A DNA stretch of 63,014 nucleotides, the filler included, from Intoshia linei (Eukaryota; Animalia; Orthonectida): the NCBI GenBank assembly GCA_001642005.1. It is 11 parts of 11 records of this genome, joined end to end, with 100 filler letters (N's around TTAATTAATTAA, not from the genome) between each part and the next. Parts side by side here need not be neighbours in the genome. Positions count along the whole stretch, not along the records: positions 40,864 to 45,493 come from LWCA01001899.1; 10 more parts are not named here. One strand, given 5' to 3'. Position numbers and translations under genes: made by a program. How positions within the stretch are numbered: the first letter of the stretch is position 1; every line of letters begins with the position of its first letter. Under the pieces are notes generated by a model. That model did no database searches. It saw only the letters and a list, made by a program, of their open reading frames with translations, and was not told the origin of the DNA. Shown here piece after piece: positions 8,701 to 63,014 of the stretch.

Positions 8701-11700
8701 CACTTTCAGTGATATATAACAAATTAGATATGATTCTTTTTTGTCAGTTTTTGCTGGACAGCTTAATAATTTTGAATATAAAAAATATACCAATATTGAC
8801 TTTTTATTTTATAATTATGAGTTTTTTAAAGTGACGGAAGAGAGCCAAACCTAACATTTTCGAGGCGACCGAAAATTAAAATAAGCCACTAACAAGAAAA
8901 CGATGATTAGTGTCATATAGTCCTAACCACCTCTACAAGGGCTTTCACTTGATATTTTAAATTTAACACACAAAATGGTTATGATATTCAAGAATAGTAA
9001 TTTTTTGAAATGGTCAATTTAAAAAAATGATTCTCCGTTTAAAAAAATTCGTCAAGGTTCCTCCGAACAGAGTCTTGTACGGTACGGTGGGTTAGGGAAG
9101 GAGGTTCGAAGTTCTTTATAAATTTACCTGTAATATTATTTATTTGTTAGTCCATAATTATACACCCTTATTATAATTGACCCTGAATAAAAGTTATCAA
9201 TTAATGCTGATTTGAACTGCGTTTATATAACTATTTTTAAATTTTAACTTAGGATCTACTCAATACATTTCACGTCCATTTGATCACAGTATCTGGGATA
9301 TCAACAAACTTTCACTTGCTGTATATTATGGTCTGTTTTCGTTCAATGGATGGTAAATTTAAAACTCAATTTTTGATTTTCAATTATTTAACAGGAATTA
9401 TCTCAATTTTGTTGTTGAAGAAATGAAAAATCCCGTTCGGTTTACATTTATGGATGTTTATGCAACTATTTTTTAGTGATTTACCAAGAGCCATTACAAT
9501 ATCATGTGTGTTTGTAGTGATAATTTACCTATTAACAAATATTTCATATTTTTCTGTTCTCGACCCAGTTGAATTTGTTAATATGAACGGAATAGCAATA
9601 GTAATTATAAAATTTTTTCATTGTATTTATTTTTAACTTTTAGCAATTTTCAACAAAAATATTAGGAAAGATAGGAATAGTAATGGCTTTTTTTGTTGCA
9701 GTTTCCACATTTGGAGGTGTTAACAGTCAAATAATTACTTCATCAAGGTAAATCAATACGAAAATTTATATACTTTAATCAATTCTGAGAAAAATTATTT
9801 TTAACCAGTAAGTTACAAAATATTTATATAAATTATTCGTAAAAGTAAATAAATTTATAAGTAAATGCTGATAAAAGAATCATATAACTACAAGTGTAGA
9901 GTTAAAAAACCAAATTTCTAATAAATTTTTTCGCTGGGTATGTCTATTTTTATGCATTTATCTATTTTTCAGAATCCAAATTTGAGTTCATTAGGGTCTA
10001 AAACCCAATTTTTCATTTTGTTTAAAATTAGAATCAGCCCAAAAACCGTTGACTGTTAATAAAACATAAATTCTGGACGTGTTATAAAATCATCAACATT
10101 GTCGTAAATATCAGCTTCATAAATTAATAGAAATCCCCACATAACTCTTTGTTTTAAAACATCATGTTATTATTAAATTTATTTTTTTGGTAAAATTAAA
10201 AATGTCCCTCTCTGCAGATCCAGGTGCTATTTGTACGAAGTACATAACAGTCAAGCTAGATAATTATAAAATATAGCAGCAACATTGCTGGAATATAGTG
10301 AGGGAACAAATTTTGCAAATGTATTTAATTTATAATTGCATTCAATTAAATTTTAATATTTAACTTAATTTACTAGGGGTAGTCTGATTTATAATTTTGT
10401 GCCGTACAATGTCTGGTGGTTATAATATTAATATGTAATTATGTAAGCAAGGATTTAAAATTAAAAATACATAAATACAAATAAAAATTTGTAATAACAA
10501 AACATCAATGTAAAACATGTATTCATAATAAATTTTTTAAATCAGAATATTTATTCTACCCCTATTTATTCATTATTTGACGTGATGGACATAATGATTG
10601 TTTAATTTGTACAATTTACATTATATTTTAATAATGTTTATAAATTAGAATGTCATTTGTTGCTGCAAGGAGAGGTCATATGCCACAATTGATGCACATG
10701 ATACATATAAATAATATTACACCTTTTGTATCAGTCAGTTTAACGGTTTATTTATTAACAAACAATATTATATAATATATAAACTATATATCATGGTTGA
10801 CAAAGTGGTGACTGTAATATCATATAAATTATCATAATTATGAAAAAAAATACAATCAGATTTTTTTAAATTTTTTATAAATTATAAATATAAAAAAAGG
10901 ATAATTGCAGTTTTTGACATTGAAAAACTCAATTTCTGAAAATTAAATTGACGATAAACATAACTCTCGAAAACCTGTGTCATATATGGATATTCTTAAA
11001 ACTCTACGTCTATTACTTTATTAAATAAATGGTAATACACAAATAAATATATAAACAGACATATATTTTTACCTAAATTTTTACTTATGTAATTGTAACT
11101 ATTGTATAATATACTTTGCAGTATTTGTTTGTGTGTGTGTTACCGTTTATTTTAGTAACTATTGTTTTAGAATTTTATAAAATCCACATTTTAATTAGTT
11201 TTTTCCGAGTGTGTTAGCAAAATAAATTTCAACCTCCTAAACTCACATCTTACGGGTTAAAAAGCCCAATTGTCCTTTTTTGAAAATCAAACAAGTTCGA
11301 GAATTTAACAAAATATATGCTCTGATACAGATTTTAAAATCATAAACATTATCATAAATTTAAATTTAAAAAAATTATATATTCAGGGCCAAAACCACAA
11401 ACTACCCTTCTTTTTTTAATGAAAACAGCCCTAGAATTTCAAAAAATTTACAGGTGTCACAGTTGTATCTTGTTAACACACATAAAAAATTTCAATTTGA
11501 ATAAGTTACGACTTCACGGTCAAAAAAGCATTTTAGTATTCATATATTTTTTTCTGATATATTTTATTAAAACAAAAAATGTGAAATAATTAAAGGTGCG
11601 AAAATTAAAAAAAAAATTATTCTGATAGAGCTTATTCCAGTTAATATAAAAACAAAATTTCAACCCAGAAATCTACGCATTCCCGGTGAAAAATAATTTT

Positions 11701-13475
11701 TAATATATTATCAACCAATATTTTTCAAATATTTCGAATTAAACAAAAAATGTGAAATAATTAATAGTTCGAAAATTTAAAAAAAGGTTATTCTGATAGA
11801 GCTTATTTCAATTGATATAAATCCAAAATTTCAACCCTAGAAATCTATGCATTACTTGTGAAAAATAATTTTTAATATATTATCAACCAATATTTTTAAG
11901 TTAGATTTTCAACGTGAATGTATTTTTTTGATAGAATAAAAATGTTCCTTCGGCAGAGCTAGGTGTTGTTTGTACGTAGTACATAACAGTCAACCTAGTT
12001 ACTGTATATAAGTAAGGATATGGATAAACATTCATCTAACTTTATTCCGATGGTTCCGCTAAATGACTGTTAGATACAATTATTTCAATATTGACGTTGT
12101 TAGAAAAATTAATTGCCAGCCTGGTATATCTTAATGGATCGATTATGTAACATATTGCATATTATAATCATTAAAGTAATATTATTAGTATTAAATTAAT
12201 AGTATAATTAAATAATATTATAATATACTTATTTTAGACAATAATTTCTATACTATTTGGTGTATTTGCTGACGTTGACTGGTTAATAAAATGTTCCGGT
12301 ATTGTAAATTGGTTAGCTATTGGAGTATCCGTGACATGCATATTTGTATTTCGAAAAAAATATCCTCACATGAAAAGGCCTATTAAAGTAATGATATTAT
12401 AATACTTATATACATTTATATATCTTTTTATTAGGTTCATATAGCCTGGCCAATAATTTATTTAATTTTAACTGTATTTCTTATCATTATTCCATTCATT
12501 GAATCACCGATGGAAACGGGTATTTAGTCATTAATTATCAAAATTTTTAATACAAAGTAAAATATATATTTATGATTTTGTTAAGGTATTGGAATATTGA
12601 TGATTTTGAGTGGAATTCCAGTATACCTGTTGTTTGTGACGAATAAAAAAAGAGACAAAATTGACCAGATAATTAGTAATATACTATAACATATAAAAAT
12701 TAATTACTTTGGAACTGATTGATTGTGTGTCAATCCATAAATATTTTTGGGATTACTTTTTGTATTATTATTAACCCATATACTCCTAGTGTGACCATAT
12801 GGTCACACAACATTACATTTAAAAAAACACGTATTAAATTGAAAAAAGTTAACTAAATATGAAAAATTAAATTAATTAGTATATTATATAACATTAGAGT
12901 ATATTAGTTATGAGTTTTCACCGATTAGCCTCCTGTGTCACTGACAGTGAGCTAAAATGATTTTTCAAAGCAAAAAAAAAATTCACTGAAAAAATTTTTT
13001 GTATTTTTTTTTGTTAAAGTTGTGATAACTGAATTTAATGAATACGATATGATGAATTCATGTATTGGCTACAATTTGATGAAGTAATTTGGTATATTGA
13101 CGATGCGGTTTTATATATACACGATTTTATTTGCCTTATTTCCCCAATGTGAACATATGGAATGTGAAATAACTCCATAACTACAATTGGTAATTACCTA
13201 AAATTATATATGGTGAGAAATAGGCAAGTATGTATTAATTTCCCAAATTTTTGGAAAAATCGAAGCCAAAAAATTGGAAAAATTTGTCTGGGAGTATATG
13301 GGTTAATTATTATTGTAAATACATAAATATAAATATAATAATCAAAATGCTAAATTTAGACCATATAACAAAATCAGTGCAAAAAGTGTTTTTATTATCA
13401 CTAGAAAAAAAGAGCGATGAAGAACAGATAGAACTTGAATCGCTCGAATCTAAACCTTTTTTAATAAAAACATAA
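5779..13475 (+). CDS. SLC7 L-type/y+L amino-acid transporter light chain (about 14 exons)
   Basis: Spliced translation includes [83 protein letters not shown] and [13 protein letters not shown], ending PFLIKT*. Confidence 0.93.
6359..6427. mobile_element. 69-bp Tc1/mariner-pogo-type MITE
   Basis: 18-bp TIR CAGTATAACCTCCGTTAT / ATAACGGAGGTTATACTG flanked by TA on both sides. Confidence 0.8.
7054..7336. mobile_element. hAT MITE in SLC7 intron
   Basis: TIR TAGGGTGTCACA...TGTGACACCCTA with perfect 8-bp TSD TTACACAC. Confidence 0.9.
11081..11998 (+). mobile_element. Helitron-like element in SLC7 intron
   Basis: Has the family 5' region with GT microsatellite, an internal duplication of about 180 bp, and a 3' hairpin plus CTAG|T. 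Confidence 0.75.
12775..13302. mobile_element. piggyBac-type MITE in last SLC7 intron
   Basis: TTAA|CCCATATACTCC...GGAGTATATGGG|TTAA, with internal palindrome GTGTGACCATATGGTCACAC. Confidence 0.88.
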
Positions 13476-19527: not shown

Positions 19528-19773
19528 ATATAGGTACAACCGTTAAATATTTCAAATTTCTTGTTTTAATAAAATAGTTTCGAATTAAAAAAATTAACAC
19601 TAGTGATTTTTTGACCATGAAGGCGTGACTTAATCAGATTGAAAAGTTTTATATAGGTACAACCGTTAAATATTTCAAATTTTTTGTTTTAATAAAATAG
19701 TTTCGAATTAAAAAAATTAACACTAGTGATTTTTTGACCATGAAGGCGTGACTTAATCAGATTGAAAAGTTTT
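19528..19773. repeat. 123-bp near-perfect tandem duplication within Helitron-derived sequence
   Basis: ATATAGGTACAACCGTT...GAAAAGTTTT occurs at 19528-19650 and 19651-19773. Confidence 0.9.
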
Positions 19774-20894
19774 TGTGTGTGCTAACTGGATATAACCGTA
19801 TCCGTATTTTTTTTATAATTCTAGGGCTGTTTTCATTTAAAAAAAAAGAGAAAATCTGGGTTTTTTGAAAATTACCTTTTTGAGGTTAGCATTAGTCATA
19901 ATGCTTATGAATTTAAAAACCATTCTAGAATTAATGTTGTATACAATTGTAGGACTTTCTTTATTTTGACAAATAAAGGTAATTTGTGGTTTTGGCCGTG
20001 AAGATATAATATTTTGAAATTGAAAATTATTATAATATTGATGATTTTAAAACTTTATCAGCTTGTGTATTTTTTATAATTCTAAATCGGCTTTGAATTT
20101 AATAATTAAGGAAAATTGGGTTTTTAACCTTGAAGGACTCAATTTCTGAAATTGAAATATGCGCTAAAACATCACTCTCGAAAAACAGCTATAGAAATAT
20201 GGAATTCACAAAACTCGATTCCCTTACTTTCTTAAATAAACTGAAACAAATAAATAGACATACATTTTTAACCATTTTACATTGTATTGCCTTTACTTAT
20301 ATAATATGCTACGCTATTTTTGTTTGTGTGTGTATTCCACTTTATTTTATAATCGGAAAGTCAGTTTTATTTGTTTAGTTCTTTGAAAAAACGACTTTAT
20401 GATTTGAAAATATGACGCTAGTTCTGAAAAAATAATTATGTACTGAAAATGTCTATAATATGTAATACATGTATATAATTTTCATTGACCCCCAAAAAAG
20501 TGCTGTGGAGCCCAAAGGGGTCCGCATGGACCCCGTTGAGAATGGCTGCATTAGATTAAATATTCCTACCTCAACCTTTATTGAATACAAAAATTGATTA
20601 TTGTTAATTGAATTAAACTAAGGAAAATAATATCAAAATTAATTTTTTTGTAAATTATATCAAAAATTAAATTATTATATCTTTTTCACATTATTTCAGT
20701 TTTTGTGCGTTAGATAAAATGTTCATACTTCAACTATTATTCAATACAAAAATTGATTAATTTTAATTGAATTAAACTAAGGAAAATGATATGAATATTA
20801 ATTTTTTTGGTTGATTATATAAAAAATTACATAATTTCAGTTTTTGTATATTAGATATACGTACTTATTTTACATTTTTCTATAAACAATACTA

Positions 20895-22395
20895 TCCTAA
20901 CTTATATAATATGCAACGCGATTTTTGTTTGTGTGTCTTACTTTATTGAAATAACTAGCACTCTTAGAATTTTTTAAATACCACATTTCAATTACAGTTT
21001 TTTTCGGGACGTATAATAAGATAAATTTCAACCTACCATATTCACATCTTAAGGGTCAAAAACCCCTGTTGTCTCTCTTTTTGAAAATTAAACGAGTTGG
21101 AGAATTTAAAAAAATATATACACTGATGCGGATTTTAAAATCATAAAAATTAACATAAATTTAAATTTAAAAAAATTATACCTCCATGGCCAAAACCCCA
21201 AATTCTCTTCCTTTTTTTTGAAAACAGCCCTAGAATTTTAAAAAATTTACAAGTGGTAGAGTCGTATCATGTTAACACACATAAAAAATTTCAATCCGAA
21301 TAAGTGACGACTTCATGGTCAAAAAAGCATTTTAGTATTTATATATTTTTTTCCGAAACTTTTTATTAAAACCAAAAATGTGAAATAATTAACGGTCCAA
21401 AAATTAAAAAAAGGATTATTCTGATAGAGCTTATTCCAGTTGATATAAATACAAAAAGTTTAACCTGAGAAATCTACGCATTCCCGATGAAAAATAATTT
21501 TTAATATATTATGAACCAATTTTAACCCCAAGAAATCAACCATTCATGGTCAGAAATAATTTTTAATATATTATTAACCAATATGTTTCAAATATTTCGA
21601 TTAAAATTGAAAATGTAAATATTGATCCTACAATTTCAATAAAAATGTGGATTTTACGTCTACACATTTCCAGTCAAAACATATGGGTGAAAATCTATAT
21701 AACTCATTTCTTCGGAATTTTTTTCATTGCTACGCAATTTTTAAATTTCAAATTTTTATTTTCCAAACATTTTGAACAACATCTACGGCAACAAATTTAT
21801 AAAAGTTTTGATACTAACTTAATTTAACTTAATTTGAAAATGCTAAAAAGAAAAGTAACATTCACAAGAAAAAAGGCCAAAAGTATGGACACATTTTTAA
21901 AATCAATCATTTATATATTACAATTATTTGTACTAATTATAAAATTTGACGAAAATATTTATAAATTGAAGATTCAGATAATTAATGATACACAATGAGT
22001 ATTTTTAAGTATTTATTAAATTGGTACTGAATATATGTCATCAAATTGAAAATGACAAAATATGTTTTTATAATTTTATTTTTTCTGGAATTTATGCTAT
22101 TTTGACAAAATTATAGGATTGGACTGTTTTTACTTTATTTTTAATATTATACACACATTCTGTCTAATAAAATTGGACTGTTTTTACTTTATTTTTAATA
22201 TTATACACACATTCTGTCTAATAAAATTAAAAAGTTTTAACTTTATTTTTAATATTATACACACATTCTGTCTAATAAATTAAAAAAATGGGATAATAAT
22301 TGTTTATAAAATTCTTTACGCAAATTTTAACAAAACAAAATATTGGATTGATAATAGTGAATAGTAGGTTTTTTAAGTTAGATTTTCAACTTAAA
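20895..22395 (+). mobile_element. Long Helitron-like copy, 3' end missing
   Basis: Starts TCCTAACTTATATAATATGC and shares the family core (CTGATAGAGCTTATTCCAG, ATCTACGCATTCCCG). Contains a roughly 55-bp triplication at about 22117-22280. Confidence 0.7.
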
Positions 22396-23876: not shown

Positions 23877-23976
23877 NNNNNNNNNNNNNNNNNNNNNNNN
23901 NNNNNNNNNNNNNNNNNNNNTTAATTAATTAANNNNNNNNNNNNNNNNNNNNNNNNNNNNNNNNNNNNNNNNNNNN
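23877..23976. other. Artificial contig spacer N44-TTAATTAATTAA-N44. Repeated at 32202, 36546, 38587, 40764, 45494, 48867, 57413, 58527 and 60213 (100 nt each).
   Basis: Identical palindromic 12-mer with stops in all six frames, embedded in N runs. Confidence 0.98.
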
Positions 23977-25528
23977 AATTTAAATTTAAAAAAATTATAT
24001 CTTCAGGGCCAAAACCACAAATTACCCTTCCTTTTTTTTGAAAACAACCCTAGAATTTCAAAAAATTTACAGGTGGTAGAGTTGTATCATGTTAACACAC
24101 AAGTACAGTTGTATCCTGTTAACACACATAAAAAATTTCAATCCGAATAAGTGACGACCTTCACGGTAAAAAAAGCATATTAGTATTCATATATTTCTTT
24201 TTTGAAACATTTTATTAAAACAATAAATTTGAAATAATTAACGGTCGTACAATTAAAAAAAAGATTAATCTGATACAGCTTATTCTAGTTGATATAAATA
24301 AAAAATTTCAACTCCAGAAATCTACGCATTCCCGGTGAAAAATAATTTTTAATATATTATCAACCAATATTTTTTAAATGTTTCGATTATAATCAAAAAT
24401 TGAAAATGTAAATATTGATCTTACAATTTCAAAAAAAATGTGGATTGTACGTTTACACATTTCCAGTAAAGACATATGGGTAAAAATCTACATAATTCAT
24501 TCCTTCGGAATGATTTTTCATTGCTACGCAATTTTTAAATTTCAAATTTTCATTTTCAAAAAATTTTGTAAACTTTAATTAATTTATGACACTAGCAACG
24601 TAATATAAAATATAAAATTAAATTTATTAACTGAAACGTGTTATTTTTTTTATTGATAATTGTTACAAATTTAACATATAATGGTAAAAAGAAAAACTAC
24701 ATTCAGTAGCTAACAGTCCAAAATAATGAAGATGAGACGGCTGAATGAGTCTCAAAAAGAACATAATATCCGAAATAGGTAAGATAACAATTGTTTTTTT
24801 AATTTTTTTTGATTAATCATCATACTATATTCATTCTGATTTACATTTAGAAAAATTTTCAGTAGACAATCCAATTTTTATATAAAACAAGAAAAAAGGC
24901 CAAAAGTATGGACACAAATTTAACATCAATCATTTTTATATTACAATCAATTGGAATAATGGTAAAACGATCAGCTGAAATGTTTATAAAGTGAAGATTC
25001 AGTTAATTATTGATACACAATTGGTATTTTAAAGTTTACTGTTTTTACTTTATTTTTAATATTATACACACATTCTGTCTAATAAATTAAAAAAATGGGA
25101 TAACAATTGTTTTTAAAATTCTCTACGCAAATGTTAACAACACAAAATTAAGATGGAATAATTCACTTTAAAGTAAAAACTAATGTGATATGACGGTTCC
25201 ACCTGAAACAAATTTGGGAACCACTCCTTTAAAGAGATTGATAATAGTGAATAGTAGGATTTTTAAGTTAGATTTTCAACGTGAATTTATTTTTTAAGTA
25301 TAATAAAAATGTGCTCTCGGCAGAGCTAGGTCCTGTTTGTACGTAGTATGTAAATTTATTTTTTGGTAGTATAAAAATGTTCCCTCGGTAGAACTAGGCT
25401 ACGGGGATTGATAATAGTGAATAGTAGAATTTTTAAGTTAGATTTTCAACGTGAATTTTTTGATATAATAAAAATTGCCTTGGCAGAGCTAGGTGCTGTT
25501 AGTACGTAGTATAAAACTGTCAAGCTAG
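23977..25528 (+). mobile_element. Helitron-like copy with reiterated 3' ends
   Basis: Family core followed by three GGCAGAGCTAGG-type terminal modules, the last ending hairpin plus CTAG|T. Confidence 0.72.
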
Positions 25529-25907: not shown

Positions 25908-30336
<4,429 letters not shown>

Positions 30337-36759: not shown

Positions 36760-37791
36760 TAGGGCAAGTATAAGTCCAAAAAGTCAAAATTTCACAGATT
36801 AATTAGAAAATTATTACGAATATCATGATATTAATATTATGCCAATTAAAACTATAATTAATATTTTATAATGTCATAAAAGTCCAAAAAGTTAAAATTT
36901 TTATCGTTATGTTTAAAAAGTCAGAATTTTAAAAATAAAGTACAAAATGTTAAATATTACAAATATTATATATAAATATTAAACGTAAATACCCTGATGA
37001 GTTCAAAAACGTTGACAGTAATTTACATTGCATTATCTGTGATACTAATGTTAATCATACAAAAATGTATTATGTGGATAGGCATTGAAAATGTCGAAAA
37101 TATAATGATAACATTAATCCAAATTTACCAATTATCAGTAATTTTGGTATATCAAATGATTTTGTAAAGAATCTAACTATGCCATTTTTTTCTGCCGACA
37201 TATCTTTATATAAATTAAACAATATCTATATAAAAAAACTATTCAATAGCATTGGTCAACCGCTGCCCTCCGAAACGCATTGTAGAAAAATTGTTACAGA
37301 AATATATGATAATAATATAATGATGAAATTATAAATCTAAAGAAAACTATGAAAGATATACATTTTGAAGAAGATCCATGTAATATCAAATTATACATTA
37401 TGAAACGCCTGGAAAACAATGACAGAGTTATTTGTAAATTGAAGAATGATAATATTTCTCCGTATATATATGAACTATTGGAATTTCGTCAATCAACTTC
37501 AGCTGCCGTAGAACGAAGCTTTATGCTTAAAAAATTGATTGCAAAATATGGAAATTTTAAAACCGATAATATTAAAAAATATAGTTTGTCATTATAATTT
37601 AGCAACAAATTAAACTAATTAATATTATTTTTTTCAGTAAATTTTAATTAATTTGTAATAAATAGGATAGTTAGTATAATTATTTTCAATTGTTGCTCTT
37701 GGAATAAAAAATTTTTAAGTACAAAAAGTTAAAATATTTTTCTATTAGGTACAAAAAGTCAGATTTATAGGTCCAAAAAAAACTTACCCTA
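36760..37791 (+). mobile_element. Internally deleted hAT element (CGGBP1-related transposase type)
   Basis: TIR TAGGGCAAGT...ACTTACCCTA and perfect TSD GTCATAAC. Relic peptides FFSADISLYKLNN..LPSETHCR and STSAAVERSF. Confidence 0.85.
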
Positions 37792-39748: not shown

Positions 39749-40658
39749 ATTGCGAATAAATCAGATCGGGACTGGTTTCCAATTTTTATAATATCTTTAA
39801 AGCCCTTTGTTGTGACTAAACAACAAGGTTCTCCATTGCTTTCGAGTAATGCATTAGTAGCGACAGTTGTTCCCATTCTAATAGATTTTATTTTTGTTCC
39901 ATCAATCAGTTCATCTAAAAAAGATAAATTAAGAATAATAGCTATAAGAATATAAATTTTATATTTTAACCTAATAAATAGAATCAAAAGTAACCACTTT
40001 TATAACTGTTGGACTTAATTATTTATAATATATATCATTATCATATAATTATTGTTGTTTTGAATTTTCTTACTATGAAAACTTTTCACATTGCTCTANC
40101 TTAATTATTTATAATATATATCATTATCATATAATTATTGTTGTTTTGAATTTTCTTACTATGAAAACTTTTCACATCGCTCCAATTTTTTTTGTATCTT
40201 TACGATACTTTTTTTTAATATTAACAATGTAAATGTAAATAAAGTAACAATTTTATGTAAATAATAAAAAACTATATTTTTACTTACTTTTCTTACTTAT
40301 TGTTAATATGATGAAACTGTACAAAGTAGTACAAATGCTGTGTTCATTGCATAAGTTTGTAAGAAAAAACAAAGTAATGATAAATTTGGAATAAATAAAT
40401 TATAATTTATTTAATTATTTAGATAATTATCGAATTACCAGCAAAATCAGTAGTATCATGCAATTGACCATACTAAAATATAAATTAAAATAAAAACAAA
40501 ACCACTACCTTATGCATAATCTGACGTATACCTTCCGCTGGAGCATCATTATAGTGAATGTTATCAGATAAAAGTTTTTCAGTAACAATGTTTCCATTAG
40601 GTAAAGTGCAATAAATATCTGTAAAAGTACCTCCTCTATCAATAGCAAACTTAAACAT
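39749..40658 (-). CDS. OPLAH: 5-oxoprolinase (ATP-hydrolysing), 5' exons
   Basis: [32 protein letters not shown] and [32 protein letters not shown]. Confidence 0.93.
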
Positions 40659-40863
40659 GAAAATTTTTATTAAATGATATAAAATGATTGATAGTGCTAA
40701 TGTAAATGAAAAATAAAGTTTAATTTAACAGATAGTATATATATTCATATGTTAATCGTTCTTNNNNNNNNNNNNNNNNNNNNNNNNNNNNNNNNNNNNN
40801 NNNNNNNTTAATTAATTAANNNNNNNNNNNNNNNNNNNNNNNNNNNNNNNNNNNNNNNNNNNN

Positions 40864-41400
40864 ATTACATGAAGATAAATTTTTCAAATGTAATTTTTAC
40901 CGATGAAACCAGAATATTTTTAGATATGCCAGGTTAGTGGAGTAAGGATTGGTTAGTAAATAACAGATCACCACCAAACCGTTTAAGGTGGGATCAAGGC
41001 GGTGGGAGTATAATGATTTGGGCAGCCATTGTGAAAGACACTATTATTGGATATTTAAAATTAAATGATTGAGTCACAATTAATTAAGACACATACTGCG
41101 CGTTTTTAAAACATAACGTTTTTTCGTGGATAAAAAAAAGAAGAAAAAGCTTTCTTAAAAATTTCATTTTTATGCATAATAATGCCCCAAGTCACGCATC
41201 CCGTTATACAAAAAAATATCTTTCATTAAATGGTTATAAATCAGAAAAAATAATGTGTTGGCTGCCAAATTCTCCCGATCTTAATTGTATTCAAAATCTA
41301 TGGTCCATAATTAAATGAAAGATAGACAGTGGGAATAAACAATATCAATCAAAAAACGATATATGACATGCAACTTTGAAAGAAATCAAAACAATAAAAA
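40864..41400 (+). mobile_element. Tc1-like DDE transposase relic with stops
   Basis: VIFTDETR, GGGSIMIWAAI, FMHNNAPSHASRYT, WLPNSPDLNCIQNLWSIIK. Confidence 0.9.
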
Positions 41401-41574
41401 TTTAAAATACAATGAATTTTAATATTTAAATATTTACAAAAAATTATTTATCCGTATTAACAAGAAATTATTGTTTAATATTCATTTGCATAATAATTTG
41501 GCACACCAAAAATAACAAAATTTTCTTAAATCTTCGTGTATTCATTTTTTTTGAATACATCACATTTTTGTTGG

Positions 41575-42370
41575 GACGTTAAAGTATTATTAGTTGAATA
41601 TATAAATATAATAAAAAAATTAACCCAATTTAAAAACTTGGAAAGCAGTGCAGGTGATGAAAAACAGATATGAGACATACAGAGAGATGCTATGAAAGAC
41701 ATGCCCAATGAAAATATTCCTTTTATCACAATGTTAATCAACTTGACACACACGTATAGATGTCCACAAGATATAACGTATATCATAATAAACCGTGACC
41801 TACAAGATTGCACAACTAGTAACGAAACTAAAAAACTCGATAACAAGAAAAATCACTAATGATATCAACAACATATTGTTACACAACTATAAAGGGAAAA
41901 ACCTTATACTTACTTTTACACAAGATAGAAAACATAACATAAGACATACGATCACAAAAACGTAAAAACGATACATGAATCACAAGGCATGTCAGTAGGA
42001 AACGTAATGTTGATAAGATCGTACTTAAAATCATATCCTATCTTTGAAAATGACATTGACGGAAAAATGAATGCATGGATGTTGATAAGTGTAACGACAC
42101 ACTAAATCATTTGTATATTTTACTAACGTAGAAGATAACCTTTACGCCAATTTAGGATTAACTGACGTTAAAAACAATACCTACAATGTACACATGGACA
42201 ACACAGCTATACTAGATACAATGGTAATATAAATCGACAAGAAACATAAATTACAAACTGTCAAAAAGAAGGTTGCACCAATTCCACCAGATAAACTAAT
42301 ATTCGACATAGATATAAATTCATACAAGTTACCTAATACATTAAACCGAAGAAAAATAATAAAAACTTAA
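41575..42370 (+). pseudogene. Decayed alpha-like (tobamo/virga-like) RNA-virus superfamily-1 helicase; candidate endogenous viral element
   Basis: Motifs occur in colinear order: AGDEKQI (III), LTHTYRCPQDI (IV), LILTFTQD, VKTIHESQG..VMLIR (V), LISVT-RHTKSFVYFT (VI). About 3 frameshifts and 2 stops. Confidence 0.85.
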
Positions 42371-43129
42371 AAAATCAATAATAACAGAATTCATTTGGCA
42401 ATCTTTTTTTACAAAACAAAAAGATATTAATTGATAAAATACTAAAAATTGTGAAAAAAATAACCAAAATAAAATGCCATGCCTTATTGAAAAAATACAC
42501 CCACATGTAAGCATTATAATGAATCTAACACGCTGTAGTAGTTGTTTTCAAATGGTACAGCCATTAAATGATATTTCTAATCAAAAATTATAGTTCTGGT
42601 TGTATAAACTATCTATTTAATCCAAATAAAAAAGATGAAATTTTGTAATCATTAGTGTATTTAATACTGTTGCTCAAAAATTACAACATAGTGAATTCAC
42701 CTTTTGTATGGTTCGAGATAATTTTGATTATGAAATTGAGATTTTATCTTAAAGGAATTGTATTGTTGCAATAATTTATTTTTGAAAATTTTTTATTTGA
42801 ATAATTTTGCAATACAATAATGATGACGTCTGATAAGATTGAAATATGCTCAAAGTTTAAAAGTCCAAAGTACAGTAATATCTGCACCTGGAATACGTTC
42901 AAAAAATGTAAGTATATGCTGTGCAATAAACAAAAAAGATGAAATACATCATAAATAAAAAGCATTTGCATTAAATTCAATAAGTTTTTGTGAATTTAAT
43001 AAAATTTTATGGATTGGATCCATGAAAAGGAATTGCAAAAATACACTATAGTTATTTATTTTTATTAAATATCATTAATGGTCGAATCAAAGTGGGACTT
43101 TTATAAATAATAATGTAAAATCCCAACAT

Positions 43130-45190
43130 CTAGTAAATATGTGAAGGTGAATCAGAAGACATTTCCATTATTAGTGGCTCTGAAAATAAATATATTTATC
43201 TACTCCTCCACCAATCAAAATTTAAAGGATTTTTTCATTTGTATTAAAAATTGATATCAATAAAATTAAATATTTAAATTGCACAATGAAAACTTTAAAT
43301 TCAACCTTAAAATAACATTTTATAATTACATGGCAAGTTATTTCAATAATTTCAGAACCGTTTTGAGGAGCATTAATTTCCAAAATTTTATGGTGATATT
43401 CTTCAAAACCAGAATAACCATTATTCATGTATTTATAAAAGCTTTTCATCATTATCAGTCGATTTGAATCGTTAACAATATCTTGCAACTAAAAAAGATT
43501 GATAAGTACAATTAAAAATAGTACATTATAAGATAAATGTTCGAAAAGTTTTGGTAAAGTTAATATTAATTCCGCATCCTTCCTGAATTTGTTCTTAAAA
43601 TACACTTCAGCAGAATCATCAGTTCTGGTAATTAATCTTTCCAACTCATAATAGAAACGATCCAAATCAGTTCTGTTGGGATGACTTTTACACATTTTTA
43701 AAATTTTTGAAATAGTTTCATTACAATTCAACTTATATCTAGGTACATGTTCCTCATTTACATCTTTATGGAGTTTTATCATTGCTATAATATTATTTAA
43801 AACAATCGCAATATAAACCATAGACACAGCAAACGTTTCATCTCCAAAAAATATAGCTAAATTTTTATATTTATCATTGTAATCCAAAGGTACAGAATCA
43901 TTCCATTTTACAAAACTAGAATTTTTTTCTAAATCTAAAAATTTTAATAATTTTTATCAACTTGTTAAAATTACTAGTTTGATGTAATGCTTGGTTGGAA
44001 TCGTCATTAACATCACTGTCAAAATCAGTAGTAGGATAAAAGGAGCAGTTACCCAATCCAAACAAATCAGGATAGAATTTGCAAATTGTAATAACCATTC
44101 TATCAATAGTATTTTGGGTAAATATGGATTTTTTTTCGAGATATGAAACGAAAAGTTTAACAAATTTTGAGTAAACATCTCCATAACCTTTCGTAAATAC
44201 ACTGAGACTAATTTGACGAATTTTGTTTGGCTGTTCAGAGATATATTCTGTAAAGTTGTTCAAAACTTGAGGCGGAGCAATACGTTTTTCCATAAGTGAT
44301 TTATTTGCGTTAATTTCACTGTTAATCATGTAATTTAAATTTGCAAAAGTTTCACGACGCCATATATAATTATATTTGGATTTTATATGGTTCCATTCTT
44401 CATACTTTTGTTCTAATCTTCTGAGAACAACAGGAATAGCCACGGTTGGATTTATCAAACAAGATTTATAAATTGCATCAAACGCACCACCGTAAATTCG
44501 TTTTATAGCAATTGTGGGTAAAATTTCAGAGTCACCACCAAATTTTGCATCAACGGTAAATTTTTTGGCATCATTGACTGATAATGAAGACATGTGATTG
44601 CATAATACTTTAAATAAATTAATTATATCATAAGTCAACCCCAATATATTATCCGTTTCAAATCTTTCTTCTTCGATATTCGTTAAATTTTCAATGGGTA
44701 TAATTTCAATATTTCTCTTTTTTTCAGTCAAATCTAGGGCGGCCGGTTTGATGACACACGTTTCATTCAAAACAGAGTTACACAAATCGTTACGATAACT
44801 AGATTTTGGTAATCTCACATCATCCTCTAAAAAATAATAATATCCATCTGTGTGCTTCACGCAAGAGGTAAAGTTTGGTGCGATAGAGTTTACTAAAACA
44901 CGTTTTTCTTCAAAATTTTTTCCACAAATAATTTTTAGTAAAAGTTCATACAGTTCGGTATTAGTTTGGAAATAATCAAAAACCATATCCATAAAACAGT
45001 GTCCATCAATAATATTCATTTGAAATAAATTAAAGCATTTCAGAAAATGTACATAAACTTTTGATGAAATTTGAAATAGGAATGTTTTAAAGTTAAATAA
45101 AACGTCATATTCATTTTCTAAATATTCTGGATATTTCGCCTTTACGACTTGTAACTCTGTTATATATGTAGGAGCCTTTTCAATGGGAAT
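43130..45190 (-). CDS. Sin3 corepressor-like (PAH3, HID and C-terminal region), divergent; 5' end missing, 3' end approximate
   Basis: VYVHFLKCFNLFQMNII (PAH3), CNSVLNETCV, EEERFETD, IKRIYG, NPTVAIPVVLRRLEQKYEEW. Confidence 0.85.
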
Positions 45191-45669
45191 CTAAGTTTTG
45201 ATAAGTTTGTCTATAATATTACTAAAAAGATAAAAAGAAATTAGATCAGTGGTTGCAAAATGGTTCCACAGTAGTTTTAAAGTAAGTAGGGTTTTAAAGA
45301 TCACTTAGATCTAGTTTTTGAAGGACAGAATGATTAAAAATAACCAGTAATAACGGTGTTGTCATTTAAAATCTATGTAAATAAATTAAACTTCTTTTAG
45401 ATTAATATGAGTTTTTCGTGTTTGTCAGTTTTCATGTTATAACGATTTTTGTTTTATTTGTGGTGTATATTTATTCAAAACCAAACGGAGCTANNNNNNN
45501 NNNNNNNNNNNNNNNNNNNNNNNNNNNNNNNNNNNNNTTAATTAATTAANNNNNNNNNNNNNNNNNNNNNNNNNNNNNNNNNNNNNNNNNNNNCAAAATA
45601 AAATTATAAAACCTATTTTGTCATTTTCAATGTGATGATATATATTCCGAACCAATTTAATAAATATTT

Positions 45670-46692
45670 AAATATACCAATTGTGTATCAATAATTAATT
45701 TTATCATTATTGCAAAGGATTGTAATATATAAATGATTGATGTTAAAAATGTGTCCATACTTTTGGCCTTTTTTCTTGTGAATGTTACTTTTCTTTTTAG
45801 CATTTTCAAATTAAGTTAAAAGTTAGTATTAAACTTTTATAAATTCGTTGCCGTAGATGTTGTTCAAAATGTTTGGAAAATGAAAATTTGAAATTTAAAA
45901 ATTGCGAAGGAATGAATTATATAGATTTTCACCCATATATCTAGACTGGAAATGTGTAGACGTATAATCCACATTTTTTTTGAAATTGTAGGATCAATAT
46001 TTACATTTTCAATTTTTGATTTTAATTGATTTATTTGAAAAATATTGGTTGAATATATTAAAAGTATTTTTCACCCGGGAATGCGTAGATTTTTAGGGTT
46101 GAAATTTTGTATTTATATCAACTGGAATAAGCTCTATCAGAATAATTTTTTTTTTAAATTTTCGGACCGTTAATTATTTCATATTTTTTGTTTTAATAAA
46201 ATATTTCGGAAAAAAANAATAAAATATTTCGGAAAAAAAATATATGAATACTAAAATGCTTTTTTGACCGTGAAGTCGTCACTTATTCGGATTGAAATTT
46301 TTTATGTGTGTTAACATGATACAACTCTACCACTTGTAAATTTTTTGAAATTCTAGGGCGGTTTTCATTAAAAAAAGAAGGATAATTTGGGTTTTGGCTC
46401 TGAAGATATAATTTTAAATTTAAATTTATGATAATGTTTATGATTTTAAAATCCGTATCAGCGTATTTTTAAATTCTCCAACTCGTTTAATTTTCAAAAA
46501 GAGGGACAACAGGGGTTTTTGACCCTTAAGATGTGAAATTGGGAGTTTGAAATTTATCTTATTATACGCCCCGGAAAAAACTGTAATTGAAATGTGGTCT
46601 TTAAAAAAATTCTAAGAGTGCTAGTAATTTCAAGAAAGTAACACATACAGACAGACAAACAAAAATTGCATCGCATTTTATATAAGTTAGGA
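45670..46692 (-). mobile_element. Helitron-like long copy
   Basis: Reverse complement of the 20895 copy, including the TCCTAACTTATATAA 5' end. Confidence 0.75.
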
Positions 46693-46945
46693 TTAGTTTA
46701 ATTAATATATTTACTATAGTAATATTTTAATTGTAAATTTAGTACAAAAAGTGACCAGTTGCCGAAAAACGTGATCAATTTTCGAGAAGTTTACTGTATT
46801 AGAAAATATACAGCACATTTTAAAATATCAGTATTGCTTTATCAGTGTCAATTCATGTCTGTTTGTCTTTCTGATTAACATTATAGCATTTAATATTATA
46901 TAAATTAAAATTTTTATAGACATCACTTTTGGCTCATAAATTAAA

Positions 46946-47112: not shown

Positions 47113-47177
47113 AATAAAAATTTAAAGCAAATCATGTGACTTACAACAAAATAATTATAAAAATCATCAATTTACAA

Positions 47178-47618
47178 TCCTTACTTATATAATATGCTAC
47201 GCGATTTTTATTTGTGTGTGTGTTCCACTTTATTGAAATAACTACCATTCTTAGAATTTTATAAAGTCCACATTTCAATTACAGTTTTTTCCGGGACATA
47301 TAATAAAATATATTTCAACCTCCCAAACTCACATCTTACGGGTCAAAAACCTCAATTGTCCTTCTTTTTGAAAATCAAACTAGTTGGAGAATTTAAAAAA
47401 ATATATACGCTGATACGGATTTTTAAATCATAAGCATTATCATAAATTTAAATTTAAAATTATATCTTCATCGCCAAAACCCAAATTATCCTTCTTTTTT
47501 TAATGAAAACCGCCCTAAAATTTAAAAAAATTTACAGGTGGTACAGTTGTATTCTGTAAACACACACAAAAAATTTCGATCTGAACAAGTGACAACTTCA
47601 CGGTTAAAAAAGCATTTT
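47178..47618 (+). mobile_element. Helitron-like 5' half
   Basis: A|TCCTTACTTATATAATATGCTACGCG followed by the GT microsatellite. Confidence 0.78.
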
Positions 47619-51256: not shown

Positions 51257-54200
51257 TTAAATAGCTTCGCTAATCAAATTTTCCGAATCTAAAGGGTTGT
51301 TTTCATCTTTATTAACATTATGGTCGGTAGGAATACCAGTAGTACTATCTTCAGTTGTATCGTTACATTCCAATTTTTCTGTCATGTCGCTACTATAAAT
51401 AAATGAATATATTCAGTTGAACCATGTTTTGTAATGGAATATATATTTTTTCAATTGTGTTAAAAAATATACCAGTGAATCACTGGCAGTGATGGAAAAA
51501 GGTGTAATAGAACATGAATATTTAAATCAAATTTTATAAGTTCATAAGAAATAGGGTTGAACTAGTGCTATAGGAAGTACTACATTATTTAAAATTAATT
51601 TAATTGAATACAATAAGGTTTCATTATGATCATACCTGGAGTGTAAATTGAGTATTTCACTGTATCTTTCCAGTTTCTTCATTTGATAATAATCATTTAA
51701 AGATCCAATCATTACAAATTTGCAATTTAGCATATACGACTAAATTTTTCATATTATATAAATGTATATCACACTCATAGATATGTAACTATTAAAATGA
51801 CTATTAAAATCAGCAAATTATTTAGTGTTACCATAAATACGTATTCGGCATTTTGCCAATACGTATTTATTTGCTTAGACTAGGGATTCTCAATCTGGAC
51901 AATTTAATTTAAAATTGATAATGTAATTTCCTTATAAACTACATTAAACCAGTCTCTCAAAAAGAATAATATTTAAAATATTAAGATTTAATTTGCAAAA
52001 ATGTATTAATACAGATAATATTTATCGTGTACTTTTTTTTTGTACATAAAATTTAATATATCTGTGTGTGTTACCGTTTATTTAAAAAATTAACAAAAAC
52101 CCAATTTTTAATACTAATTTTCGCGGGTGATGTGAATATCTAAGTTTCATTTTCTGAAATTGAGTCCTTCAGGGTCAAAACTCCAATTCCTTTTTTTTTT
52201 TAAAAATAAAATCCACCCAAAAATTTAAAAAACATATTCTGGGACGCGTTTTAAAATCATTAACCCTGTCTTAAATCTTAAATTCAGAAACGTTAGATTT
52301 TATACAAATCATACTAATTTTTATTTCCAAAAATTGAGTCATTCAAGATTAAAAACCCTTTATCCATTTGTAAAAATCAAACAAGTCCTAACATTTTATA
52401 AAATATACACCTGATACAAATTTTAAAATTATCCAAATTATGATAAATTTCATTTTGAAAAACTGGTATCTTCATAGCCAAAACCTTAAAATTACCCTTA
52501 GTTTTAAAAATGAAAAATGTCCTTAAATTATATAAGACACTAGGTTGATTGTTATATACTACGTACAGACAGGATCTAGCTCTGCCAAGGGCACATTTTT
52601 ATAATACCTAAAAAATACATTTATGTTTTCATTAAAAAAAGAAGGGTAATTTGTGGTTTGGGCCCTGAAGATATTATTTTTTTTAAATTTATATTATGAT
52701 AATGTTTATGATTTTAAAATCCGTATTAGCATATATATTTTTTTAAATTCTCCAACTCGTTTGATTTTTAAAAACGGGTTTTTGACCCGAAGATGTGAAA
52801 TTTGTAAGTTGAAATTATGTTTGCGAAAACCCCCGGAAAAAAGCTGTAATTGAAATGTTGACTTTATAAATCCGAGTCTTAACTAAGTCCGGAAAATTAT
52901 TTAAATAAAGCGGAACACATACACACACACAAACAAAAATCGCGTAGCATATTATATAAGTTATGATAAATTCTGGGATAATTTTTAAAACCATCAGCAT
53001 TATGACAAATTAAATCCTCAAAAAATTGTATTTTCACAATCATAACCCAGATCTTTTCAAAACATTATTGCCCATACTGTCATATCAAGGTAACACACAC
53101 AAAAAAATTTAATCTCACAAAGGTGACGCCTTCACAATCTAACAATCAATTTGGTTGTCATTTTTTGTTTTTATTTGTACTATTTTATTAAAAAACGAAA
53201 ATATTAAATAACCTATTGTCCCAGAATTAAAAAATAAGATTATTCTGATACAAATTATTGTAGTTAACCATCCAATAATCCTTACTTATCTTTACTTATA
53301 TAATATGCTATGCAATATTTGTTTGTGTGTTTGTGTTACCGTTTATTTCAATAACTACCAATCTTAGAATTTTATAAAGTCCACCTTTCAATTACAGTTT
53401 TTTCCATGCGTGTTAGAAATTTAAATTTCAACTTCCCAAACTTACATCTATCGGGTCAAAAATCCCAATTGTCATTTTTTTGACAATCCAACGAGTTGGC
53501 AAATTAAAAAAAATATGTTACCAGGGCCATAACCCAAAATTACTCTTTTTATATAAAAATATCCCTAGAATTTAAAAAAATTTAGGCCTAAAATAAATGA
53601 CGCCTTTACAGTCAAAAAAGCACTTAAGTATTTATATATTTTTTTCCGAAATATTTTATTAAAACAAAAAATGTGTATGAATAATTAATTAGTTGAATTG
53701 ATCTTAAAGTAATTTTAAATAATAAAATAAAAAAAATAGAAACTTACGACATCTATATCATATTCTGGATAATAATCGTTTTCTCTCAACATGATACTTA
53801 AACTGGTTTTTTCTAAAATTTAAAAAAAATAAATATCTTATATTTACCATTTAATTTGTTCTTTAATGCATGCAAATCACGAAAATTCAAAGGTGGGCTA
53901 ATGTCAATTATAAATCCATCCATCGAGCAATTTTCAGTGATTTTGGAATAATTATTTAATATCCACTTTTTACCATACTTAATATTATTTGATTCAAAAA
54001 TATTTATACTATTTGACAATTCCTTTGATTTTTCGTATAAATTATTCCATGATGTATTATCCTGAAAAATCAAATTTTAAATGTTATTTTATTAATTTTG
54101 TAAAATTAATAAAAATTTTTTCTTAAATTACTTCCGTTTTTATCGGGTCTACAAGTGTTTGAACAAAAGGATATTTTTCCAAAATATCCATCCAGTAAAG

Positions 54201-58626: not shown

Positions 58627-60212
58627 GGTCAAAAATTGGTAAGGTGAGTGAAAAATTAGCTAGTGTGTCTAATAAATTTTTTAAAGTGGTAAATAATTTT
58701 GGTGATGTATTTTGTGAAAAACCTGGCAGAACTAAGTTGTTAAAGCATGAGATAAATTTGCGTGATGGTGTTAATCCGGTGCGTGGGCCCGTGTATGGTG
58801 CTCCAGGGAATGTGAGACATAAATTGAGGGAACAATTGGAGGAAATGTTGAGGTTGGGTGTTATTGAGGTTTCTAAATCTAGTTGGAGGTCCCCATGCTT
58901 TTTGGTTCCAAAAAAAGATGGTAAGGACAGATTGGTGGTAGATTTTCGTGGTCTGAATGAGTTGACGAAAAAGGATGCGTACCCTACGTCAAATCCAGAT
59001 GAGATGTTTGATTTGTTGAAGGAGGGTAAGGTGTTTGCAACATTGGATTTGAGTAAAGGGTTTTGGGAGGTTGAGTTGAGGGAGGAGGATAGGTATTTAA
59101 CGGCGTTTGCGACAAATGCCACGGGGTTGGGAAATAAATTATTTTAATTTAAGGTGATGCCCTTTGGTTTGAGTAACAGGCCAGCGACGTGTCAAAGGTT
59201 AAGTGACAAGGTGTTGGGTGGTATAGGATTTGCAGTTGCTTATTTGGATGATTTTATTATATTTTCAAATAATTTGGAGGATAATAAGAAGCATTTAGTT
59301 GAGGTGTTGAAAAGATTGCGTAAATATGGGTTGAAGGTGAATCCTTCAAAATGTTGTGTGGGGATGAAGGAAATTAAGTATATTGGTCATTTGATAAACG
59401 AGAATGGATAAGGATAAGTTGAAGGTTGTTAGTGATTGGCCGGTGCCTGATAGTGTAAAAAGGGTGAGAGGGTTTTTGGGTTTTTGTTTTTATTATAGAA
59501 AGTTCATTAAGAAATTTGCTACTAAAACAACAATGTTGACAAGGAAAGGTGTTACATGGTATTGGAGTGATGTTTGTAACAATGCTTTTAATAAATTGAA
59601 GGTTGAGTTGTGTGAGGCGCCTATTATTTCACATGTAAATTGGGACTTACCATTCGTATTGGAGACGGATGCTTCAAATTCAGGGTTGAGTGCTACTTTA
59701 TTTCAGAAGGGTAAAGTGGTGATGTATGCAAGTAAAATGCTTAATAAGCATCAGGTGAATTATGGTGTGGTGGATAAGAAATTTTTGGCCATTGTATGGT
59801 CGGTGAAAATATTTCATAAATATTTGTATGGTAGGAAATTTACAATTATCACAGATCACAATCCATTGGTGATGTTGGTAAATCTAAGAAATTATCAGGT
59901 ATGAAAGGGAGGTGGATGCAATCATTGGAGATGTATGATTATGAGATACAATACAGATCAGGAAAATTAAAGGGGTCTGCTGATGCATTGTCTAGGATGT
60001 TTGTGATAACGGGAAGTGAAGATGTTTTAGAAATTGTGAAAAGTCAAAAGAAGGATTTGGCTTGTAGGAAAATTATTAATTACATTAATAGGGGTCGTCC
60101 TACAATTGTTAATGAGGTGGAAAAGGGTGGAATGTGCGAAAAATATTGGTGTTAAAAAATAACATTTTAATGTATCGAAGGGAGGTTGAGTTGTTAGTAG
60201 TGGTGCCTTTAA
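58627..60212 (+). mobile_element. Ty3/Gypsy LTR retrotransposon pol fragment (RT, RNase H, start of integrase), disrupted
   Basis: SPCFLVPKKDG..RLVVDFRGLN, LDLSKGFW, MPFGL, YLDD, LETDAS, TDHNPL, ADALSR. In-frame stop at 59145-59147; frameshifts near 59405 and 59900. Confidence 0.95.
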
Positions 60213-61274: not shown

Positions 61275-62599
61275 ATAATAACATATTATAGCATTCAATT
61301 ACTGTTACTGTTTAATTAGTATGACAAGAAAAAAAGTAGTACTATCAGGTTTAACTTATTTAGAAAAAATTTTAAACCAACTATCTACAGATCTACAGAA
61401 ATAGCAAGCTACTATTTGAATATTATTGTATTAAAAATAAAACTCTATATTGCTTTTAAAAATCTTTAATCTGTAAGGCGATATTAAAATTCTATAATAA
61501 TATGAATTCATCAAATATAATAACTCTATTAATAATTAAAAATACAATGATATATTAATTAATGATAAATTAAATTATGTAAATATTATGTAATATGTTA
61601 TTATTATTATAGCTTGTAAATTGATATATAGTAAATTAGCAAAAATCCCAGTTAAATTTAGATTTTTGTATCCACTGAAATCTACTGTTGTCTTTTCATG
61701 TCCCTGATTGTGTAATGTACAAAATTTAATTTAATTTAAATTTAATCGTTCTGAAACTAATTTTGAGCTATAAATATTTTATGAATAAATACACTGACGT
61801 TATGAAAGTTATGAATTTGTGGAATACTAGTAAAATTCCGATTAAACATAAAAAAAATACAAATAGACGATACAGTTTTGAAATACTCGGTGAAAAAAAT
61901 TTCATTAATATTATTGAGATAAAGTTTTATGTTTGCTAATAAAAACGAAAAATTTTGACTCAAGGCATATCAGAAACTGTTAAAATATTGAAATTATGTC
62001 CACCCTAGTCTACATAATTCCAATAAATAAATATCGGTGGAAATCTATATAATTGATTTGTTGAGTTTTTTCATCGGGTTTATCACCATTTAACACATAA
62101 TAATTTTGATTTATAGACGGTATATAGCAATTTATTATAACTATAGTTACATGTTTGATTGTTAAATAAATTAAAGTCGGTATTTAAATTAAATGTAATC
62201 TACAAATAATATAACAGTTCTCAAACCTATTTGTTAATCATTATTATTAGTAATAATAACTTATTACTTATATTAGCATTTCTCCACTAGTTTATAAACT
62301 ACATATATAATTATTATTATATGTATAATACACATGTACAAATATAGATAATATGTATACATAAATATACATTGCATTTACATGTAGATCAGGGGCATCA
62401 GACTTAGTTTGCTTGGCGGGCCAAATGTGACTTATTATTAAAAAAACCGAAGAAATCAATTTATGAGACTACTACCCATATTTTTAAACTGCAAATGTGC
62501 AGACATTCAGAGTTTTTTTTTGAAATTTTAGGATGAATATTTACTTTTTAATTTTAATTTACATATTGGTTGATGATACATTAAAAATTATTTTTGACT

Positions 62600-63014
62600 G
62601 GGAATGTGTTGATTTCTGGGTTAAACTTTTAGATTTATATCAACTAGAATAAACTGTATCAGAAATTTTTTTTTGATTGTTCGACCGTTAATTATATCAA
62701 ATGTTTTAATTTACAATCAATGTTAATAAAAAAAATGAATACTAAGATTATTTTATGACCGTGAAGGCGTCACTTTGTTAGATTGTAATTTTTTGTGTGT
62801 GTTTACTGGATATCCCTGTATTATGTGTAATTTTTATTAAAATACCGGGACTATTTTGATGTTTTAAAAAAAAAGCAATCTGGGGTTTTGGTTATGAAAA
62901 TGACTTTTTTAAGATTGCCATTTATTTTAATGCTTATGATTTAAAAAAATATACCAGAATTTATTTAATATGAAATTTTTAAAACCAAAAGTAATTTGTG
63001 GTTTTTACCATGAA
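62600..63014 (-). mobile_element. Diverged Helitron-like internal fragment
   Basis: Matches the family core in reverse (ATATCAACTAGAATAA, GACCGTGAAGGCGTCACT). Confidence 0.65.

Follow-up and report, generated by a model that had tools for sequence, protein, structure and literature searches.

The window, a stretch of 63,014 nt assigned to Intoshia linei, is interrupted ten times by the same 100-nt linker (44 N, a 12-nt palindrome with stops in all frames, 44 N); the copies start at 23877, 32202, 36546, 38587, 40764, 45494, 48867, 57413, 58527 and 60213. These most likely join separate contigs, since the record with the GlyRS gene has a length of 23,876 and the first linker begins at the next position. 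Neighbours across a linker are therefore meaningless. The features considered here lie on the single contig between the linkers at 40764 and 45494:

40866..41420, + strand: decayed Tc1/mariner transposase, C-terminal half, of a multicopy family (Pfam DDE_3, E 1.4e-5; many divergent contigs of high depth)
41421..41638, + strand: repeated non-coding stretch, likely a transposon 3′ end, which includes 'KVLLV…KKLTQ' (contigs of other copies)
41631..41639, + strand: left member of a pair of 9-nt direct repeats, a candidate target-site duplication with TT/AAAA context (repeat search)
41639..42124, + strand: virus-derived helicase fragment with SF1 motifs III–VI (clade HMM, tblastn, PF01443 with X at the breaks, contigs of this locus only)
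42125..42375, + strand: probable viral post-helicase linker, unique, A-rich, in a nearly open frame with a stop at 42230 (composition and frame)
42360..42368, + strand: right member of the 9-nt pair, with an A-rich run before it (repeat search)
42384..42530, + strand: second repeat fragment (depth; matches to other contigs of the window)
40864..43329, − strand: most likely a Sin3 intron, which holds the Tc1 relic, the viral piece and the second repeat, its far end beyond the contig (open frame and donor)
43330..45190, − strand: Sin3 exons 43330–43488, 43525–43934 and 43975–~45190, with introns of 36 and 40 nt (Sin3_corepress, E 3.7e-10)

An earlier note on this DNA had quoted a series of helicase-like peptides, and frame translation located all of them on the + strand between 41653 and 42124 (GD at 41653, TYRCP at 41746, NSIT at 41834, TFTQ at 41912, VKTIHE at 41962, NAWML at 42070 and RHT at 42095). 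SF1 motifs III–VI, as we number these peptides, were present in the expected order. The reading frame of this stretch alternates +1/+2/+1/+2, with frameshifts near 41830, 41955 and 42092 and a stop at 41671. The 800-nt window from 41601 had an A/T skew of 0.30, the strongest of all 800-nt windows tested.

In a single unjoined frame the element reached 67.4 bits with a clade HMM, a profile of natural virus helicases, compared with a maximum of 4.9 bits for shuffles (n = 300) and −3.6 for the best match elsewhere in the window. In tblastn, likewise on unjoined frames, the element was matched by 151 of the 164 motif-bearing ORF stretches cut out of viral loci, and by 122 of 152 natural proteins (51 of these at E < 1e-3), which bears out the proposed Viral_helicase1-type motifs III–VI. 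The Pfam check suggested in the note gave a divided answer: single-frame pieces of the element did not match PF01443 (none of four), and a part-length read-through with X at each break reached E 7.6e-4 and 19.8 bits, under the cut-off of 21, with PF01443 as the sole family at E ≤ 10. In a PDB search the read-through matched the tobamovirus-type replicase helicase 3vkw (E 2.7e-5), and the significant matches were virus replicase chains only (two of the three matches listed). It is thus extremely unlikely that the motifs arose by chance or that the element is a pseudogene of a cellular SF1 helicase (of the Upf1, UvrD, Pif1 or Helitron type): one piece matched UvrD_C_2 weakly (E 0.053), but the read-through found no other Pfam family and only viral chains in the PDB, and shuffled sequence came nowhere near the HMM score of the element.

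Walker A and B were absent from the element, where homology begins at 41653 with repeat DNA upstream. Walker B had been described as deleted; since the corresponding letters, 'KVLLV…KKLTQ', belong to a repeat that is likely a transposon end, the motif is absent rather than deleted. Judged by its sequence, the element is a piece of the viral SF1 RNA helicase family and incapable of encoding a working helicase, because both Walker motifs are absent and three frameshifts interrupt the remainder.

Extent of the element and its flanking repeats

Seven runs from two studies, eight years apart, contained the contig, and four of them (X1–X4) were compared. X1 was taken as DNA by an automated guess; by record annotation no run was RNA, though X2–X4 splice Sin3. 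On the left flank, contigs of other repeat copies matched to 41623 (X2, X4) or 41638 (X1, a 959-nt record) and then diverged. On the right flank, contigs of other copies covered the second repeat from about 42400 to 42504, its start of homology at ~42384 being judged by eye from loose contig ends. The sequence between (41639–42375) was covered in the four runs solely by near-identical contigs of its own locus. When the 90 nt upstream of GD were compared with the Walker B regions of 12 natural helicases, none resembled them (all z ≤ 2.2). Because the flanks match other repeat copies and no Walker B similarity precedes GD, the unique element spans about 41639–42375 (~0.7 kb); the note had begun it at 41575, and that 41575–41638 portion was reassigned to the repeat.

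In the tail (42125–42375) A made up 48% of the letters and the AT skew was 0.35; it contained one stop, and as few occurred in 140 of 5000 shuffles. The tail did not significantly resemble natural linkers (z ≤ 1.2 for six clade members; best 2.6, P0165), and it is for that reason only presumed to be viral.

The 9-nt repeat flanking the element arose by chance in 57–722 of 4000 shuffles, depending on the null (1.4–18%), and in 41 of 1604 empirical window pairs. LINE endonucleases prefer a TT/AAAA context. The repeat hints weakly at retroposition and is suggestive only.

At 42412–42497 the second repeat had an X1 depth of about 100 versus 18, and it shared 31–34-nt matches with repeats in other contigs of the window. 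Neither it nor the rest of the intron matched a Pfam family; its motifs suggest that 42384–42530 is hAT-transposase-like. Elsewhere in the window, frames at 37089–37597 ended in a 'S-A-A-V-E-R-S-F' stretch with no Pfam match, presumably similar to the hAT dimerisation motif. An abundant unclassified repeat family, with copies 70–87% identical, occurred at 11090–11785, 20894–22082, 23977–24568, 26790–27250, 45595–46695, 47173–47618, 52624–52990 and 62438–62966, and a gypsy-type RT/RNase H relic of high GC skew at 58627–60155. Two near-perfect local duplications, of about 123 nt (19528–19773) and about 60–70 nt (39978–40180, around a single N at 40099), are possibly assembly artefacts.

Genomic presence, Sin3 setting and host

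Contigs covered the element at 41594–43348 in X1, 41797–43357 in X2, 41465–41919 and 42060–42384 in X3, and 41594–41701 in X4. Contigs of X1, X3 and X4 span the left junction, and contigs of X1 and X2 run across the right one into unique host-like DNA; both junctions, which the note had asked to be confirmed, were thus crossed by assembled contigs of independent runs. No indel difference was listed inside 41639–42375 in the runs covering each break, so each frameshift is common to two or three runs across both studies. Since contigs from the two studies carry all three, the frameshifts are genomic decay and not assembly error. Three single-base differences lay inside the element; one falls in the codon at 41671, and that stop may therefore be private to the window's sequence.

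The element's contig had a depth of 18.4 in X1 and the Sin3 contig one of 9.1, and the two overlap by 14 letters (43335–43348); depth here is not a measure of copy number. These depths and the short overlap, together with the fragmented assembly, are what could be said for an assembly or amplification chimera, or for contaminating viral RNA or cDNA joined to host DNA. Such an artefact is scarcely credible: two studies separated by eight years show the same frameshifts, contigs bridge both junctions, and a replicating virus could not bear three frameshifts in its helicase. The view that the element is decayed and genome-integrated was supported by the independent contigs, the shared frameshifts and the host flanks, and its block does hold both the Tc1 relic and Sin3, as proposed, the DDE_3 and Sin3_corepress matches lying on the same contig.

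That two studies contain the locus fits inheritance. At 80% likeness, four of the seven runs yielded neither a diverged sibling nor a live-virus contig, a search of contigs that does not show absence; no empty allele of the locus was seen, and no second copy of the element was found in the window. Searched with full-length natural replicases, the window gave no further viral piece, apart from a match of the RNase H of P0135 to the gypsy element. P0135 itself (ENA protein, 2429 aa, on a contig of 27.8 kb) combines in one ORF a viral helicase, RdRP_2 and an RNase H of retroelement type, and is possibly an RNA-virus/LTR-retrotransposon recombinant. A second ENA protein, P0132 (1483 aa, on a contig of 22.8 kb), joins a weak trypsin-like domain to a viral helicase, and is a possible EVE or domain capture.

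The Sin3 joints had CT..AC ends in three of the four runs (X2–X4). The spliced frame was open to the exon end at 43330, where a GTAATT donor follows, and mRNA-like contigs of X2, X3 and X4 left the window at 43328 into 51–153 other letters, which had no match in the window; nor were the flanking Sin3 exons present there. Because the frame is open to 43330, the donor follows and the mRNA-like contigs depart at this point, 40864–43329 was assigned as a Sin3 intron. Across the intron–exon link X2 extends by 28–30 letters and X1 by 19, short of the required 31, so that the link leans on the window's own contig. Thus, the element most likely sits inside a Sin3 intron, antisense to the gene, between two transposon relics, of which the Tc1 relic is also antisense to Sin3.

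Depth on the element in X2–X4 was 8.6, 4.5 and 4.4, against 355, 988 and 692 on Sin3 (0.5–2.4%). This low cover in RNA-like runs fits pre-mRNA, and equally DNA carry-over, strand not being distinguished. The element is probably transcribed only passively, within Sin3 pre-mRNA.

Orthonectids are parasites that live inside another animal, in the case of I. linei a nemertean. The contig could on this account come from the invertebrate host, the element then being a true EVE of another genome. The gene that names the species, a GlyRS 100% identical to I. linei protein P0290 (next matches ≤57%), lies on a different contig from the element, and run X2 bears a different organism code. Contamination of this kind is nonetheless very unlikely: the Sin3 introns (36 and 40 nt) are close in size to the 38-nt gap of GlyRS, GC3 is alike (0.24 in Sin3, 0.23 in GlyRS), short repeat matches link the element's contig to the GlyRS contig, and six of the seven runs share one organism code. 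The element likely belongs to the genome of I. linei, an orthonectid (PMC7943196).

Virus lineage and the retrotransposon alternative

A comparison set was gathered by generic motif scans of viral contigs and then by protein searches with natural L243 (a further 151 proteins). L210/L243 was the best match among the 164 viral ORF stretches (E 2.4e-11). L243 (IMGVR_UViG_3300021901_000003) is a 4.4-kb partial genome of an unclassified Martellivirales-like virus, with helicase and RdRp in one ORF and no close relative in viral_contigs. Local phmmer scores against the element were 80.5 bits for L243, 71.1 for DerpV4, 70.6 for Shenzhen toga-like virus and 65.6 for Stellipti virus 1; P0153 and P0126 both scored 59.3 bits (ranking from 5th), and P0144, which is fused to RT, ranked 68th.

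Two trees were built, from the viral and LINE-type helicases of this set. FastTree, with 165 rows (164 of the 178 natural proteins passed the motif cut), grouped the element with the Stellipti/Shenzhen toga-like/DerpV4 clade (SH-like 92). IQ-TREE under LG+G4, without a mixture model, used 46 hand-picked rows (P0141, P0258, P0135 and P0132 failed the motif cut) and placed the element in an 11-row clade with support of 86/92, not starred, on a branch of length 1.15. The tobamo/virga-like identity given in the note was abandoned: grouping with the tobamo-type rows (L025, L029, L036 and L062, taken as tobamoviruses by length and clustering) was marginally rejected by the AU test (p = 0.033), and the closer relatives are likely the unassigned Martellivirales clade.

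Two further characters, a criterion defined in this analysis and not in print, agreed with the trees. The spacing between motifs V and VI was 40 codons in the element and 39–40 in six clade members, compared with 34–35 in 124 of 158 measurable proteins. The pattern N-x-W-[MQL]-L-[VI]-[AS]-[VL]-[ST] occurred in the element and in four of 178 natural proteins, all of the clade; a pattern scan of viral_contigs returned only L243, and one of metagenome_contigs gave no match. RdRP_2 lay in the same ORF as the helicase in five clade members, L243 among them.

Stellipti virus 1 is listed in the supplement of PMC9241645 as a family-unassigned member of Martellivirales from the free-living marine flatworm Stylochus ellipticus, and according to PMC11577009 toga-like viruses from dust mites and flatworms have the same genome structure as a copepod virus. 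A full-text literature search gave no match for 'Stellipti virus' or for 'Shenzhen toga-like virus'/'DerpV4'. The nearest relatives are likely this unassigned clade (Stellipti, Shenzhen toga-like/DerpV4 and L243), as the alignments and trees suggest. Family-level placement appears moderate, not firm, because the set, gathered with L243 as query, is biased to kin of L243 and the composition of the element is odd; a relative closer than L243 may exist.

Retrotransposons bearing a captured viral SF1 helicase (TRAS ORF2, Jockey ORF1 type) exist in insects (PMC5563155), and the element, which sits among transposon debris, could be the relic of one, its last donor a mobile element and not a virus. 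P0153, a probable LINE-ORF1 helicase, ranks 5th, and P0145 of the same group clusters with a Nilaparvata lugens protein; in AU tests, sisterhood with the RT-fused P0144 was not rejected (p = 0.062) and grouping with the probable Jockey-ORF1 group was barely rejected (p = 0.049). Against this, the frames scanned at 40864–41420 and 42378–43321 had no RT or endonuclease match, which decay could have erased, and 41639–42375 had no repeat-like cover in four runs at 80% likeness. LINE-type helicases have a V–VI spacing of 34 and no N-x-W signature, two ORF1-type proteins end 42–57 aa after motif VI+10 whereas the frame of the element continues for about 80 codons, the free tree does not group the element with LINE helicases, and P0144 ranks low. 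We regard a retrotransposon donor as quite unlikely.

Origin and comparison with known systems

What was observed is the homology, its breaks, the occurrence in two studies and the repeats that flank the element left and right. On this basis it is highly probable that the locus holds the dead, genome-borne remnant of a replicase helicase from an RNA virus, likely an unclassified member of Martellivirales related to the Stellipti and Shenzhen toga-like/DerpV4 viruses, and that this remnant likely lies antisense in an orthonectid Sin3 intron. A host retroelement would have reverse-transcribed viral (+)RNA in a germline cell, and the copy would have landed among transposon debris. The most likely route of insertion, at about even odds, is LINE-type priming at the target from the A-rich tract, as the 9-nt repeat would suggest; otherwise the cDNA would have been captured by repair. 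As a source of RT the window contained gypsy-type RVT_1 and RNase H (59148–59901); no LINE was seen in it. The insert would have been tolerated, since an antisense intronic insert is spliced out, and would then have decayed neutrally.

Antisense nrEVEs lie in piRNA clusters of mosquitoes (10.1101/2022.08.22.504762), and by analogy the antisense insert may have a small-RNA role. The accessible text of PMC7943196 and part of its supplement contained no statement on Piwi or Dicer in I. linei. A bolder scenario would make the element the first virus record of Orthonectida, left by an undescribed A-rich Martellivirales lineage of marine spiralians that moved between invertebrate host and parasite, with the antisense Sin3-intron fragment, in a well-expressed gene, and the antisense transposon pieces beside it feeding a small-RNA memory against that virus in an animal genome that is among the most reduced; this we consider unlikely. 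No report of a virus or EVE of Orthonectida was found in titles and abstract openings, the search lying mostly outside subscription literature, and neither Intoshia nor Orthonectida appeared in a row of the PMC12548735 supplement; the sampling of 31 phyla in PMC11097642 may bear on a first-in-phylum claim.

The element is most probably a non-retroviral EVE of an ordinary kind; what is new is the host phylum, and the virus clade has been sampled only thinly. With it, Martellivirales gain a host phylum that had no virus report in the literature searched, and a clade otherwise drawn from a few transcriptomes gains a genomic record. The V–VI signature and the clade of about ten proteins provide a marker for orthonectid and host-worm RNA. 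Its value is palaeovirological rather than mechanistic, because retroposed, decayed replicase pieces are well known.

Motifs III–VI and a V–VI spacer of 39–40 are shared by Stellipti viruses 1 and 3 (DAZ87985.1, DAZ87983.1), Shenzhen toga-like virus (QPN36947.1), the mite virus DerpV4 (Dermatophagoides pteronyssinus virus 4, QWY79458.1), L243 and the Logan protein P0126. Clade members and element have an N-x-W/H-x-L signature ahead of motif VI, were grouped in both trees, and are only about 27–47% identical in local tblastn segments. Unlike these viruses, the element is fragmentary and dead, without methyltransferase or RdRp, and its coding strand has 44–48% A versus 32% in L243.

Martellivirales EVEs are common in insects, with 121 in Bombus (PMC12922265). 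Like these NIRVS, the element is a short (about 0.7 kb versus a mean of 504 bp), apparently single-copy (+)RNA replicase piece in host DNA, but its host is an orthonectid instead of an arthropod. By RdRp the Bombus NIRVS group with Xiangshan martelli-like viruses (PMC12922265); the element was compared by helicase. SF1H-carrying LINEs (TRAS ORF2, Jockey ORF1; PMC5563155) also place a Viral_helicase1 domain in animal DNA; they are intact, multicopy and RT-linked, unlike the element, and their candidates form separate branches with the short V–VI spacer. The tobamovirus-type helicase 3vkw resembles the element in motif order and IV-to-V spacing, whereas the element falls in a separate clade.
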